A stretch of DNA of 64,000 bases from Promethearchaeota archaeon (lineage in GTDB: Archaea; Asgardarchaeota; Thorarchaeia; Thorarchaeales; Thorarchaeaceae), in contig JBHLPF010000001.1 of the NCBI GenBank assembly GCA_048939765.1, positions 46,073 to 110,072 of the forward strand, in the 5' to 3' direction. The notes under the pieces were generated by a model. The model searched no databases. It was not told where the DNA came from and worked only from the letters and a program-made list of their open reading frames with translations. Positions 9,755 to 62,472 of the stretch are shown here, piece after piece (position 1 is the stretch's first letter; every line of letters starts with the position of its first letter). A program made the translations under genes and the position numbers.

Positions 9755-10318
9755 GTGTCATCAATTAGTCGAGTGTTTCTCAGTATTGACATCGATGATG
9801 AAGCGCTTCTCTCAAGAATTACTCACATTCAATCATTACTAGACAGACAATCAGTAAAAATGAAGTTGGTCGAAAGAGGGAATATCCACTTCACATTGAG
9901 ATTTCTTGGGGATACACCACATACGAAGATTGATAGAATCAGGGATGAACTGTCAGATATCCGATATGGATCCTTTGCGATCAGGATTGATGGGGTAGGC
10001 GCATTCCCAAGTACTAGCCGCCCTAGAGTCATATGGGTGGGGGTATCTGAAAATGAAGAAAGAGTAAAAGACCTGAAACTGAACATTGATGACCGGCTTG
10101 GGAATATAGGTTACTCACGTGACAGGAAATTCCATGCCCATGCAACAATTGCACGGGTCAGGGCTGTGCGTGATCGTGACCGAATAAGGGAAAACATAGA
10201 ACATCTGGTAGATGAGCCAGTAGGAACTATGACTGTCGATTGTTTCAGGATGACAAAAAGTACTCTGACCTCCTCAGGACCAATCTATGAAACTCTATGG
10301 GAAGTACGGGCTTCGTGA
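9755..10318 (+). CDS. thpR: RNA 2',3'-cyclic phosphodiesterase (2H phosphoesterase, LigT/ThpR)
   Basis: 187 aa. Two H-x-T/S-x motifs (HFTLRFLG and HAHATIARV) with the spacing typical of LigT. Confidence 0.8.
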   Translation: MSSISRVFLSIDIDDEALLSRITHIQSLLDRQSVKMKLVERGNIHFTLRFLGDTPHTKIDRIRDELSDIRYGSFAIRIDGVGAFPSTSRPRVIWVGVSENEERVKDLKLNIDDRLGNIGYSRDRKFHAHATIARVRAVRDRDRIRENIEHLVDEPVGTMTVDCFRMTKSTLTSSGPIYETLWEVRAS

Positions 10319-20208: not shown

Positions 20209-21402
20209 TCAGGTGAGTAAGTCGAGTAGATGTTGTTCCAACATATCAGCTGGTACTTCAGAGAGACCTATCAAGGTTGTCTGACCTCTCTGGCCAGCAC
20301 CAGAACGTTTTGTGTCCAAAAGCCCATGCGCATTTAGATCCTGTACCCATTCCCAGATTTGAGTGTGTGCCCTTGGATCTTCGCCGTACTCCTCGCATAT
20401 TGGACGGTACATCTCTTCGAGCTCACCCATTGTGATATATGCGCCTCGATTCATCCTGAGCTGTCTTGCAGCTGCCAGAAGAAGAAGCATATTCTGTCGA
20501 GGGAGAGTTGCGAACACCTCCTTCCTCAACTCGGGATGTATGTCTGCCTTGGCCTTACGGGCAAAATCAGGAATCACCTTTCGGGAGCCTGTACTATCAG
20601 CCTGCTTCCCTGCGCGCCACAGGAGTTCGATTGCATAACGGGCGTCCCCCCATTCTGAGGCAATGTCGCAGATAATCTGCAGTGTTTCATCCATAACTGC
20701 ATCCTTCTCGAATGCCATGTCTACTCGCTCCCTTAGAATATCATATAGTGCATCAGCTGCATATTGGTCAAAACGAAGTATGTTTCTTTGAAGTGTGCTC
20801 AATGTGCTTTGATCCAAGATACTCTCATCAAGGGGTATCTTTCTCCCCACTCCGATTACAGACAGACGCTGAGGAGCATTCAACCGGTCATCCATCAGCC
20901 TAGTCAAATCATAGAGAATGTCAGCGCCTCGTTGTCTAATGAAATAGTCGAGCTCATCAAGTATCAGTAGAAGGTATCTGTCTTCTTCATCAAGTACTTC
21001 GACAACCATCTGAAGAATTTCTTCAGGTGAATGGCCTCGTCGAGGAAACCTTGGTTTAAACTCCCTCAATATCCGCAGATACACAAGATAGGTGCTCTTG
21101 CTCACTCTACAGTTTATGTGCAGTTTGTGCAGTTGAATGCCACGTCGCGTAGCGGCCTTAACCATTTGATCCGCAAAACGCTTAGTCACAGCTGTCTTTC
21201 CAGTGCCTACTGGGCCCTCGATAATGAACTTCTGACTCGCGCGACCGGGCGAAGCAATCAGTGTCTTGAAACTCTGGGCCAGCTTCCTCAACTCAGGCTC
21301 TCTATGCGGGAGAGTTTCTGGAACATAGTCGATGGATAGCAATTGCTCCGACTTGAATACACTCCGTCGACTCAGTTCGTCTTCTACATAGTCATGCGTC
21401 AT
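20209..21402 (-). CDS. cdc6: Orc1/Cdc6 replication initiator
   Basis: 397 aa. AAA+ Walker A GPVGTGKTAV, Walker B LILDELD and a C-terminal winged-helix region. Confidence 0.92.
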   Translation of the reverse strand: MTHDYVEDELSRRSVFKSEQLLSIDYVPETLPHREPELRKLAQSFKTLIASPGRASQKFIIEGPVGTGKTAVTKRFADQMVKAATRRGIQLHKLHINCRVSKSTYLVYLRILREFKPRFPRRGHSPEEILQMVVEVLDEEDRYLLLILDELDYFIRQRGADILYDLTRLMDDRLNAPQRLSVIGVGRKIPLDESILDQSTLSTLQRNILRFDQYAADALYDILRERVDMAFEKDAVMDETLQIICDIASEWGDARYAIELLWRAGKQADSTGSRKVIPDFARKAKADIHPELRKEVFATLPRQNMLLLLAAARQLRMNRGAYITMGELEEMYRPICEEYGEDPRAHTQIWEWVQDLNAHGLLDTKRSGAGQRGQTTLIGLSEVPADMLEQHLLDLLT

Positions 21403-21624
21403 GAGTCATCCCGGTCCGAAATAGAAACAAATCAGCAACTTAAAAGAGTTGTGTGAATTGTTCGATTAAATGTATGCGAGGAGTGGGGCTAGCCGAAAGT
21501 AATAGTGGCGAGCTCGTTACTCAAGATCCATATCATCGTCGCTCTGGACTCATTGGGGTCATGGCAGTCATCACTCGCCGCTCACAACTTGGTCTACTTG
21601 TCCTTAAGTCTGACGAAAAGAATG

Positions 21625-21728
21625 TGCGGCCGCCGGGATTGTCTCAACACACAGCAGTCGTATGTTGATTCGAACCCGGGTTGGAGGCTTGGGAGGCCTC
21701 CGTCCTAACCAAGCTAGACTACGGCCGC
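21625..21728 (-). tRNA. tRNA-Gly (anticodon CCC) with a roughly 30-nt intron at a non-canonical position in the T-loop/T-stem junction
   Basis: Reverse complement reads GCGGCCG-TA-GTCT-AGCTTGGTTA-GGAC-G-GAGGC-CTCCCAA-GCCTC-CAAC-CCGGG-TTCGAAT[CAACATACGACTGCTGTGTGTTGAGACAAT]CCCGG-CGGCCGC-A. Acceptor, D, anticodon and T stems all pair perfectly only when the 30-nt insert is removed. Confidence 0.75.
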
Positions 21729-21834
21729 TGAAGAGGCCATCCTTATGGTATATGATAAAAGACTATCGGCAAAATGCTCCAAGTCAACGCTTATCAAGGA
21801 CTTGTGGGACAGCCGCTCCTGAGGATTATCCTTC

Positions 21835-22971
21835 ATGGCCGGTCGCGATTCAACAATCAACTTCTGGCAGGGGAATCAGGCATGCGCTGAAGCTGCAATT
21901 GCAGCAGGATGCCGGTTTTTCGCTGGCTATCCAATCACACCAGCTTCAGAGATAGCAGAAATCATGGCAGAGAATCTTCCAATTGTTGGAGGGACGTATC
22001 TCCAAATGGAGGACGAGATTGGTGCGATATCTGCGGTAATAGGTGCCTCATGGGGTGGCACTTTGTCAATGACAGCAACATCTGGCCCTGGCTTCAGTCT
22101 CATGCAGGAGAATATAGGATATGCAATTATGACTGAGACTCCTTGTGTCATTGTGGATGTCCAACGTGCAGGACCCAGTACTGGGCAGGCGACAAAAGGA
22201 GCACAAGGAGATTTCCAGCAATCAAGATGGGGTACACATGGTGATGTCGAGAGCATAGTATTATGTCCTAATTCTGCACAGGAAACATTCGAACTCACCT
22301 TGCGTGCCTTTCATCTCTCGGAGAAGCTTAGACATCCAGTGGTAATTCTTTCAGATGAAATTGTGGGACATTCTCGGGAGAAGGTTGTTGCGAACACCAA
22401 GGAGGACCTAAGGGTTCAGCGAAGGTATGCAGAGCCTGGAATTCCTCCATTTGATGGCTTCAATAAGGATGGTTGGATAGAGATGCCAAGGTTCGGCGAG
22501 GGACATAACCTACTAGTCACTGGATCAACACATGACAAATATGGCTATCGAAGGACCTCTGATCCCGAAGTACATGACAGACTGATTCGTCGAATCTCAG
22601 AGAAAATTCATAATGAACGTGCCTTTCTCACAGATGTGGTGGTTTCAGGTCAAGAGTCAGCTGAGTGGGGAATTATATCGTATGGGTGCACATCAAGATC
22701 GGTAGAGGAGTTGATTGCTAGAAGTTCAGGTGTCCCTCCTCTGAGATCACTACGATTGAGAACTGCATGGCCATTTCCAGATTCTGAGATAAGAGAGTTC
22801 GCCAAATCAGTTGATCGATTGCTGGTGCCCGAGCTTAGTCTAGGACAGCTCTTCAGAGAGGTTTCAAGAGTAGTTAGCGACTCTGTCGACATGGTTTCAC
22901 TAACTAAGATTGGCGGAGGATTGATGATTGAACCGGATGAAATCGTGGAAAGAATTAGGTCAGAGTCATAG
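21835..22971 (+). CDS. korA: 2-oxoacid:ferredoxin oxidoreductase alpha subunit (KorA/OorA family)
   Basis: 378 aa. N-terminal FAGYPITPASEI and the SGPGFSLMQE region are characteristic of COG0674 alpha subunits. No beta subunit gene is adjacent. Confidence 0.85.
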   Translation: MAGRDSTINFWQGNQACAEAAIAAGCRFFAGYPITPASEIAEIMAENLPIVGGTYLQMEDEIGAISAVIGASWGGTLSMTATSGPGFSLMQENIGYAIMTETPCVIVDVQRAGPSTGQATKGAQGDFQQSRWGTHGDVESIVLCPNSAQETFELTLRAFHLSEKLRHPVVILSDEIVGHSREKVVANTKEDLRVQRRYAEPGIPPFDGFNKDGWIEMPRFGEGHNLLVTGSTHDKYGYRRTSDPEVHDRLIRRISEKIHNERAFLTDVVVSGQESAEWGIISYGCTSRSVEELIARSSGVPPLRSLRLRTAWPFPDSEIREFAKSVDRLLVPELSLGQLFREVSRVVSDSVDMVSLTKIGGGLMIEPDEIVERIRSES

Positions 22972-28461: not shown

Positions 28462-28569
28462 GCTCCGGTAGATGATTCATGAAATCCATGATACAACCGT
28501 ATGTAGTCCGGCCCAGCATGAGGGACTCTCGATCCCTCGACCCGGGTTCGAATCCCGGCCGGAGCACCA
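28462..28569 (+). tRNA. tRNA-Glu (anticodon CUC) with a roughly 30-nt insertion near the D-arm 5' side (non-canonical intron position); CCA is encoded
   Basis: The 3' two-thirds is canonical: ...AGGGA-CTCTCGA-TCCCT-CGAC-CCGGG-TTCGAAT-CCCGG-CCGGAGC-A-CCA. The 5' acceptor GCTCCGG is at 28462. It is separated from the D-arm sequence (ATGTAGTCCGGCCCAGCAT) by GATGATTCATGAAATCCATGATACAACCGT. The exact splice boundaries are ambiguous. Confidence 0.6.
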
Positions 28570-59373: not shown

Positions 59374-59943
59374 GTGCCCAGCTGCGAACTTTGTGGCCGA
59401 AACATGAAGGGTCGTGGACGGAATGTCGAGATCGAGGGCGCTCAAATGAACGTCTGCCCACAGTGTGCTAGTAGATTCGGTGGTTCTGAGTCTGTTTCTG
59501 GTCAACGGGGCTCATCCGCGCCAAAGGTGCGACCGTCCTGGGTTGGCGAGTCAAGGAAACCAGCATCAGCTCCTCCGCTCAGGTCACCATCACCTGCTAA
59601 GAAAAGACCCAGACCAAAGTCGACTGGGACTCTCCTTGATGACATGATGCTGGTAGAGGACTTTGCAAGAAGAATCCAGACTGCGAGGCAGAAAAAGAAA
59701 CTGAACCAAGAGGAGCTTGCACAGAAGGTAGGAGAGCGCATTTCAACACTGCAAGCCATAGAGGCAGGTCGACTCAAACCCACCCGCAAGACTATCCGAG
59801 GCCTTGAAAGGGAGCTGGAAATCTCATTGCTTGAACCAATCGATGCTGTTCCCATCAAAACATCTCGAGGAATCTCTGGCACTGGTCCTACACTGGGAGA
59901 CAGAGTAGTTGTCAAGCGAAAGAAGTCCCAGAAGTCTGAATGA
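59374..59943 (+). CDS. mbf1: Archaeal multiprotein-bridging factor 1 (aMBF1): zinc ribbon plus HTH_XRE
   Basis: 189 aa. N-terminal CELCG...CPQC zinc ribbon, Pro/Ser-rich linker and C-terminal HTH (LNQEELAQKVGERISTLQAIEAGR). Confidence 0.8.
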   Translation: MPSCELCGRNMKGRGRNVEIEGAQMNVCPQCASRFGGSESVSGQRGSSAPKVRPSWVGESRKPASAPPLRSPSPAKKRPRPKSTGTLLDDMMLVEDFARRIQTARQKKKLNQEELAQKVGERISTLQAIEAGRLKPTRKTIRGLERELEISLLEPIDAVPIKTSRGISGTGPTLGDRVVVKRKKSQKSE

Positions 59944-60088
59944 GAGGGACCCAAACGAAGTGAATATATAGTGTCTTATACAATTATAGTATAGTAAGTG
60001 CAAGTTCTAGTTTCCAAACGCAGGGCTTTTGGTTACATTAAGACACAGTCGACTAGCCAGCTACCATTCGCTAGGGTGATCACTTCAA

Positions 60089-62160: not shown

Positions 62161-62270
62161 GGGCCGGTAGTCTAGCCCGGCTATGATGTCTCGCTTACAC
62201 CGAGAAACTGGTTGAGCTTTATGCTCTCCAGATTCGAAGGTCGCTGGTTCAAATCCGGCCCGGCCCACCA
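62161..62270 (+). tRNA. tRNA-Val (anticodon UAC) with a roughly 32-nt insertion between the anticodon stem and T-arm (non-canonical intron position); CCA is encoded
   Basis: GGGCCGG-TA-GTCTAGCCCGGCTATGAT-G-TCTCG-CTTACAC-CGAGA-[AACTGGTTGAGCTTTATGCTCTCCAGATTCGA]-AGGTC-GCTGG-TTCAAAT-CCGGC-CCGGCCC-A-CCA. Acceptor 7/7 and anticodon stem 5/5 perfect. The extra 32 nt cannot be a class II variable arm for Val. Confidence 0.6.
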
Positions 62271-62384: not shown

Positions 62385-62472
62385 GCGGGAGTAGCCAAGC
62401 CCGGTCAAAGGCGGAGGACTTAAGATCCTCTCTCGTAGGAGTCCAGGGGTTCAAGTCCCCTCTCCCGCACCA
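62385..62472 (+). tRNA. tRNA-Leu (anticodon UAA), class II with long variable arm; CCA is encoded
   Basis: GCGGGAG-TA-GCC-AAGCCCGGTCAAA-GGC-G-GAGGA-CTTAAGA-TCCTC-TCTCGTAGGAGTCC-AGGGG-TTCAAGT-CCCCT-CTCCCGC-A-CCA. All stems pair. No intron. Confidence 0.8.

Follow-up and report, generated by a model that had tools for sequence, protein, structure and literature searches.

A tRNA-Gly(CCC) gene with a conserved 30-nt insertion, a probable 59/60 intron, in the T-loop at a Thorarchaeota-type Asgard locus

The window that we analysed is a stretch of 64,000 nucleotides that, as judged from its sequence, is archaeal and of Thorarchaeota-type Asgard origin. The tRNA-Gly(CCC) gene on which we focused lies on its minus strand among genes for Orc1/Cdc6 (20209-21402, -), a small wHTH protein, a TruA/Pus-type pseudouridine synthase and two RFC subunits, and is flanked by the gene for KorA, the 2-oxoacid:ferredoxin oxidoreductase alpha subunit (21835-22971, +). 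Among the products of genes further away in the window are GINS, TFIIE-alpha, NAC and a 192-residue small GTPase of the Arf/Ras family (2134-2712, -; Pfam Arf, E=2.7e-13); the GTPase, a typical Asgard 'eukaryotic signature' protein, fits the taxonomic assignment. Two MAGs, GCA_048938645.1 and GCA_048940965.1, have contigs on which the Orc1 locus is identical and the neighbouring genes are the same. A pattern scan (one genome per species) and a metagenome scan found further loci in which KorA, tRNA-Gly and Orc1/Cdc6 are syntenic, with 79-92% nucleotide identity to the window over ~8 kb. The contigs bearing these loci, one of which is an SMTZ1 contig, were labelled Candidatus Thorarchaeota or Candidatus Hermodarchaeota, both of which fall within the Asgard kingdom Promethearchaeati.

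Read directly from the window, the minus strand from 21728 to 21625 is GCGGCCGTAGTCTAGCTTGGTTAGGACGGAGGCCTCCCAAGCCTCCAACCCGGGTTCGAA-[30 nt]-TCCCGGCGGCCGCA; divided into its parts, the reverse complement of 21625-21728 is GCGGCCG-TA-GTCT-AGCTTGGTTA-GGAC-G-GAGGC-CTCCCAA-GCCTC-CAAC-CCGGG-TTCGAA-[TCAACATACGACTGCTGTGTGTTGAGACAA]-T-CCCGG-CGGCCGC-A, with the insertion in brackets. Excision of the 30 nt in silico left a 74-nt cloverleaf with an acceptor stem of 7 bp, a D stem of 4 bp, an anticodon stem of 5 bp and a T stem of 5 bp. An earlier sequence-only reading of this DNA had called the stems perfect once the 30 nt are removed; all four do pair, but one of the 4 pairs of the D stem is a U13-G22 wobble. 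The spliced form has an anticodon loop CUCCCAA, a T-loop UUCGAAU, a variable loop of 4 nt and an A at position 73, and it shows the features expected of a tRNA after excision, namely G18G19 in the D-loop, U33, a purine at 37 and a GTTCRANYC-type T-arm. Its acceptor end reads G1-C72, C2-G71, G3-C70, A73, in which A73, C2-G71 and G3-C70 form what we take to be the archaeal/eukaryal-type glycine identity set.

The complete gene corresponds to a 104-nt precursor (21625..21728, -) in which CCA is not encoded and A73 lies at 21625, an assignment based on the sequence, the cloverleaf, an ARAGORN call on the spliced form and ten orthologues. The 5' exon (21669..21728, -) comprises tRNA positions 1-59 and ends in GGGUUCGAA; it includes the anticodon CCC (positions 34-36; 21691..21693, -), which we read from both the cloverleaf and ARAGORN. 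The 3' exon (21625..21638, -) consists of U60, the T-stem strand CCCGG, the acceptor strand CGGCCGC and the discriminator A73, as given by the cloverleaf, the orthologues and the splice register discussed below. In the predicted mature tRNA the exon-exon junction joins GGGUUCGAA to UCCCGGCGG (in a longer form, CCAACCCGGGTTCGAA to TCCCGGCGGCCGCA). Outside the gene, a TATA-like box TTTTATCA (21753..21760, -) lies 25-32 nt upstream of the mature 5' end, and a T-rich run TTCTTTT (21616..21622, -) starts 3 nt past A73; by their position these would be a putative archaeal promoter and terminator.

ARAGORN called the in-silico spliced sequence as tRNA-Gly(ccc). On the unspliced precursor it returned no correct call under any intron option that we tried, and lowering its stringency produced a truncated mis-call. 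The Rfam tRNA model (RF00005, gathering score 29) also missed the unspliced gene, and its match to the precursor at a relaxed threshold (18.9 bits, E=0.3) was distorted and skipped the T-arm. The expectation that standard finders would overlook this gene is thus borne out for ARAGORN and the Rfam tRNA model, but it is probably too strong for tRNAscan-SE 2, whose archaeal mode searches for non-canonical BHB (bulge-helix-bulge) introns by default (PMC8450103), and a Freyarchaeia Gly-CCC gene of 128 nt with two introns is listed as a tRNAscan-SE result in Supplementary Data 4 of PMC11291895. Three plus-strand ORFs of 67-97 aa (21453-21668, 21505-21708 and 21662-21955) overlie the tRNA gene and a small-RNA-like element on the opposite strand, and may be called over the tRNA-Gly gene in annotation. 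As had been proposed from the sequence, they are almost certainly spurious, because the region is conserved as RNA and promoter sequence and shows no coding periodicity.

We aligned ten distinct orthologous precursors, all close relatives, without gaps. Of the 74 exon columns 73 were invariant, the exception being nucleotide 17 in the D-loop; the insertion was 30 nt long in every orthologue, with 11 of its 30 columns invariant and a conserved 3' segment GAGAYAAU. Across the nine pairs of the hairpin that the insertion forms, 90% of cells were standard pairs and three pairs had changed on both sides, as at columns 63/83, where A-U, G-U and G-C all occur. The covariation score of the hairpin was matched by 16 of 500 shuffles and slid controls were clearly lower, support that is modest because the orthologues are closely related. 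Upstream of the gene, the block TTTGCCGATAGTCTTTTATCA, which contains the TATA-like box (-32 to -25), was invariant in seven aligned loci in which the adjacent bases vary, and the downstream TTCTTTT run was likewise invariant in relatives amid variable surroundings; in position, this block and run fit an archaeal TATA promoter and oligo-T terminator. A pattern scan of six Thor/Hermod representative genomes gave the intron-bearing gene as the sole match in each, and turned up no intron-less twin that shares the anticodon arm and T-arm, in MAGs that may be incomplete and in which divergent paralogues are possible.

These data confirm that 21728..21625 is a genuine tRNA-Gly(CCC) gene with a 30-nt T-loop insertion. 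The identity and anticodon assigned by the sequence-only reading hold up against the cloverleaf, the ARAGORN call and the ten orthologues, and the non-canonical T-loop insertion that it described is kept in all ten. With 73 of 74 exon columns fixed between flanks that are 79-92% identical, the locus has been kept as a gene by purifying selection. A tRNA pseudogene inactivated by insertion, or a chance resemblance to a cloverleaf, would agree with the failure of standard finders to make a call; however, exons, TATA-like block and T-run do not vary between genomes whose flanking DNA is 8-21% different, the predicted precursor fold (-51.3 kcal/mol, z=-5.5) was equalled by none of 200 shuffles, and the pattern matched no intron-less copy in the six related genomes. 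In a decaying gene, moreover, 73 of 74 exon columns would not stay fixed beside an insertion that changes in a compensatory way, and we consider the chance of a pseudogene or a coincidental fold to be close to negligible.

Because AATC is present at both junctions, five splice registers (57/58 to 61/62) yield the same product in the window alone. An intron at 60/61 or at another of these positions would therefore be indistinguishable by product within the window, but two orthologues break the tie, L036 by a C for U in the first base of its intron and L049 by a 3' bulge that reads AC^U, not AA^U. With these two included, a common mature T-arm (CCGGG-UUCGAAU-CCCGG) for the ten orthologues results from the 59/60 register alone. 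The rule that a 3-nt bulge is cut after its second base leads to this register too when applied to the bulge beside the T stem, and so does the canonical BHB of the orthologues from Helarchaeota and Jord/Freyarchaeia described below. Taken together, the orthologues and the register argue for a 30-nt intron UCAACAUACGACUGCUGUGUGUUGAGACAA between T-loop positions 59 and 60 (21639..21668, -), whose removal would restore a 7-nt T-loop, and make any other register very improbable. The sequence-only reading had allowed 59/60 or 60/61; the first of these stands, and the coordinates that it gave, 21638-21667, correspond to 60/61 and are one base off.

In an archaeal BHB each strand runs in the order helix, 4-nt central helix, 3-nt bulge (cut after the second base) and helix. 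The tRNA-Gly(CCC) precursor can be drawn in this order, with a 5' strand of T stem, U54 U55 C56 G57, A58 A59^U and inner helix, and a return strand of inner helix, A G A C, A A^U60 and T stem. The two 3-nt bulges that bear the splice sites lie on opposite strands, as in a strict hBHBh' motif; they are symmetric, both AA^U (AA^C or AC^U in two orthologues), and each is one base 5' of a helix. Both flanking helices are also there, the outer helix h being the 5-bp T stem and the inner helix h' the hairpin of the intron itself (CAACAUACG / UGUGUGUUG with loop ACUGC; 21645..21667, -), which has 9 bp in the window and was recovered in both MFE and consensus folds. The strict 4-bp central helix H is absent: UUCG of the T-loop faces AGAC, AGAU or AGGU, giving two of four possible Watson-Crick pairs in 10/10 Thor-type sequences. 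In the window the facing segment is AGAC (H' segment; 21641..21644, -), opposite U54-G57, where U55-A and C56-G pair and G57.A and U54.C (U54.U in most relatives) are mismatched, a pattern (x||x) shared by all Thor-type orthologues. Checked as a relaxed motif, the structure has both bulges with a strong h or h' and a weak H of two Watson-Crick pairs plus G.A and U.C. The BHB-like conformer has a predicted energy of -39.8 kcal/mol against -46.3 for the predicted structure, a 6x6 internal loop with a 10-bp hairpin. A check of the fold at the junctions for a BHB-like motif, as the sequence-only reading had advised, therefore gives a divided answer: two 3-nt bulges and outer and inner helices can be drawn, but the central 4-bp helix has only two Watson-Crick pairs and the conformer lies ~6.5 kcal/mol above the MFE. 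We also considered an alternative pairing of UUCG with UGAG or CGAG (four pairs, 5-nt bulges) and rejected it, as it is asymmetric to the splice sites and at -37.6 kcal/mol is worse than both of the above.

The same site is filled in sister lineages. In Helarchaeota (L020/L061, L026) and Jord/Freyarchaeia (L005, L035, L042, L056, L057) the tRNA-Gly(CCC) genes carry insertions of 26-31 nt at this position. These form a full hBHBh' motif, in which H is UUCG/CGAA or UUCG/UGAA (4/4 pairs), the bulges have 3 nt and the inner helix is good. The position is therefore a true BHB intron site in those lineages, and the Thor lineage appears to have kept a degenerate, relaxed version of the motif. In a 10-position BHB scan (3+4+3 pairs), which is noisy for short helices and gives frequent chance matches of 8-9/10 in every tRNA, the true site was top-ranked only in the Helarchaeota and Jord orthologues (10/10) and scored 8/10 in the Thor-type ones. 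Matches with the same T-arm and no insertion at the site came from Thermococci, Sulfolobales, Pyrobaculum/Thermoproteus, Hydrothermarchaeota, a Heimdallarchaeote and others. The Jord/Frey-type gene is 128 nt long (L057 9369-9500, +; also L005/L035/L042/L056) and has two introns, one of ~27 nt in the D-loop (GTCCAG[AAATAGTATGGGTAACTATTGGACATT]CTGGTC) and the 59/60 T-loop intron with a perfect BHB, and the Helarchaeote L026 gene has additional sequence in its 5' half.

This comparison bears on whether the 30-nt hairpin is removed at all, or is retained so that the mature tRNA has an extra arm that leaves the T-loop at 59/60. For retention one can cite the degenerate central helix in every Thor-type orthologue, the fact that the BHB-like conformer is not the predicted MFE structure, the conservation of the 30-nt length and of the 3' segment GAGAYAAU, and the general knowledge that 59 and 60 are the T-loop residues least engaged in the T-loop core. 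However, a textbook BHB occupies the exact site in sister Asgard lineages, and the symmetric AA^U bulges, each a single base to the 5' side of a strong helix, have EndA-type geometry. The insertion also evolves far faster than the exons (11/30 against 73/74 columns invariant), as expected of a discarded spacer that needs only its hairpin. To our knowledge, an expanded T-loop arm has not been described in any tRNA, which also counts against a retained arm, and we regard such an arm as highly unlikely.

The gene, the insertion and its exact site, the conservation, the hairpin and the canonical BHB that sister lineages have at this site are established, and the reading that we favour, to which we assign a probability of roughly 0.9, is a functional Thorarchaeota-type tRNA-Gly(CCC) gene with a 59/60 intron spliced from the precursor; its transcription, the enzymes and the excision itself we infer. 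In outline, transcription from the gene's own TATA-like promoter would give a precursor of 104 nt plus, in which the T stem would serve as outer helix and the intron's own 9-10 bp hairpin as inner helix. The two splice sites would fall within 3-nt AA^U bulges, one a single base 5' of the T stem and the other likewise 5' of the intron hairpin, and between the bulges would be a central segment of four positions, in which UUCG from the T-loop faces AGAC from the intron and only the middle two pair. Cleavage by EndA in both bulges would yield ends with a 2',3'-cyclic phosphate and a 5'-OH, and an RtcB-type ligase would then join the exons and restore the 7-nt T-loop UUCGAAU, whose tertiary contacts would be possible only after splicing. 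Neither EndA nor RtcB was among the 10 window ORFs that we scanned against Pfam. 

The sequence-only reading had also proposed that relaxed-specificity endonucleases process sites of this kind, and here the literature agrees. PMC4090602 gives 59/60 as one of the known sites of non-canonical introns in archaea, and PMC5829648 describes the Asgard EndA as an (alpha-beta)2 enzyme with a broad-specificity L1 loop, includes Thorarchaeote SMTZ1-83 in its survey of tRNAs and EndA, and gives (alpha-beta)2 and epsilon2 EndAs as the only types that cleave non-canonical introns. A crenarchaeal (alpha-beta)2 enzyme alone removes introns at non-standard positions in vitro (PMC3241643). By analogy with these other Asgard genomes, the enzyme acting on the tRNA-Gly(CCC) intron would be a broad-specificity (alpha-beta)2 EndA. 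In the published relaxed motifs (hBH, HBh' and BHL) the missing part is an outer helix and not H (PMC4090602). We can imagine going further, to a thorarchaeal EndA that accepts a BHB with a central helix decayed to two Watson-Crick pairs between G.A and U.U/C mismatches, a class outside hBH, HBh' and BHL, combined with a 59/60 intron that Thor, Hel and Jord/Frey inherited from a common Asgard ancestor and that was not inserted three times; this joint proposal is speculative, and we think it somewhat doubtful as a whole.

The window contains four tRNA genes, three of which have one non-canonical insertion each and none of which has a 37/38 intron, and this fits the published picture of Asgard tRNAs. 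For the tRNA-Glu and tRNA-Val introns, brute-force excision followed by ARAGORN was uninformative, as ARAGORN tolerates many loop variants, and we placed them by hand with the BHB rule. The tRNA-Glu(CUC) gene (28462-28566, +, with encoded CCA to 28569) has a 30-nt intron (28472-28501) near the start of the D stem, placed at 10/11, with H of CGGU/ACCG (4/4) and bulges AG^A and UA^U; as drawn from the sequence, this motif has no outer helix and would be HBh'-like. ARAGORN made no call on this gene, and Rfam matched model positions 10-63 only (31.6 bits). The tRNA-Val(UAC) gene (62161-62267, +, with CCA to 62270) has a 32-nt insertion (62207-62238) in the variable region, placed at 44/45 in a register that is ambiguous over four positions, with H of CGAG/UUCG that borrows the 3' strand of the anticodon stem. 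Supplementary Data 4 of PMC11291895 lists an Atabeyarchaeia Val-TAC gene of almost equal length with one intron at the same offset. The fourth gene, tRNA-Leu(UAA) (62385-62469), is intron-less and lies 118 nt downstream of tRNA-Val(UAC). We rejected GGTTCRAA / GGTTCRANNCC sites at ~46992, 47310, 49874 and 51676 as hidden tRNAs, as they lack a T stem or cloverleaf and lie in coding-looking sequence.

Between tRNA-Gly and orc1/cdc6 we observed a second conserved element of 77-79 nt (21504-21582, -), ~43 nt downstream of tRNA-Gly and upstream of orc1/cdc6, which is near-invariant in nine Thor-type loci with variable flanks. Its sequence contains GUGAUGA as a C box, CGAUGA as a C'-like box and a terminal stem GGCGAG/CUCGCC, together with D-like boxes in degenerate form only (AUGA, UUGA, ACGA/AUGA), and a canonical k-turn could not be drawn in it. 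A conserved ACTTAAGG, a possible TATA box, lies ~27 nt upstream, and a T-rich run follows the element. Its only Rfam matches are weak and snoRNA-like, at 16 and 14.8 bits where the cut-offs are 44-45. Within the element, bases 54-64 (GGAUCUUGAGU) are complementary to positions 31-41 in the anticodon arm of tRNA-Leu(UAA) (10 Watson-Crick pairs and one G-U; chance p~0.04 by a rough estimate). The element may be a candidate gene for a C/D-like guide sRNA. We searched beside orc1/cdc6 for origin-recognition-box repeats as a reason for the conserved intergenic block and found none, and a scan for sigma-70 promoters and intrinsic terminators, whose models are inapplicable to archaea, gave nothing useful. 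Elsewhere in the window, 9755-10318 (+) encodes a 187-aa protein of the LigT-like 2H phosphoesterase / 2'-5' RNA ligase family (Pfam LigT_PEase, E=3e-24), a family that acts on 2',3'-cyclic phosphate ends of RNA. Rfam also gave a match to RT-2 RNA at 59891-59999 (+) that falls short of the threshold (24.8 bits, cut-off 40; E=0.09); this match runs into the 3' end of an ORF for an HTH regulator (59374-59943), and we take it as probably due to chance.

One consequence of the intron is for annotation: since neither ARAGORN nor the Rfam tRNA model sees the tRNA-Gly(CCC) gene, annotation by such tools would leave Asgard MAGs seemingly without a decoder of GGG. Our analysis reveals no new mechanism. 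It adds a documented and conserved case of a T-loop intron in Thorarchaeota, at a site that is filled in three Asgard classes, and the shared 59/60 site bears on the age of the intron and on how relaxed recognition by the Asgard splicing endonuclease is. This endonuclease is related to the eukaryotic TSEN complex.

Among known systems, the closest in position are the 59/60 introns of Crenarchaeota/Thermoproteales (Marck & Grosjean 2003 and Sugahara 2008, per PMC4090602). Like them, the tRNA-Gly(CCC) intron as we read it would be protein-spliced, is a few tens of nucleotides long, lies at T-loop position 59/60, has splice sites in 3-nt bulges with the T stem as a flanking helix, and is missed by finders that consider only 37/38. 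It differs in that the host is an Asgard archaeon and in that H comprises two Watson-Crick pairs flanked by G.A and U.C/U.U; the motif is thus neither the strict hBHBh' nor the textbook hBH or HBh', in which an outer helix is absent. Compared with canonical 37/38 introns in a strict BHB (Euryarchaeota, with alpha4 or alpha'2 EndA), the presumed EndA and RtcB chemistry and the pseudo-symmetric layout are the same, but the intron is in the T-loop and its motif is relaxed, which would call for the broad-specificity enzyme types (PMC5829648). Closest in host are the intron-rich tRNA genes of other members of the Asgard superphylum (PMC11291895 and PMC5829648), among which non-canonical introns are numerous and genes may have more than one; PMC11291895 gives introns in 92-95% of the tRNA genes of Atabeya- and Freyarchaeia, often at non-canonical positions. 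The Freyarchaeia Gly-CCC gene in the supplementary data of PMC11291895 matches in length and architecture the Jord/Frey-type loci that we found, e.g., L057. As far as their main texts go, these two papers give counts and coordinates for other classes and do not describe the Thor-type gene, its 59/60 site or the degenerate H. The 59/60 position, the (alpha-beta)2 Asgard EndA and the abundance of non-canonical introns in Asgard tRNAs are all already published, and what we would add as only mildly unusual is a degenerate central helix fixed in the Thor lineage at a site common to three Asgard classes.
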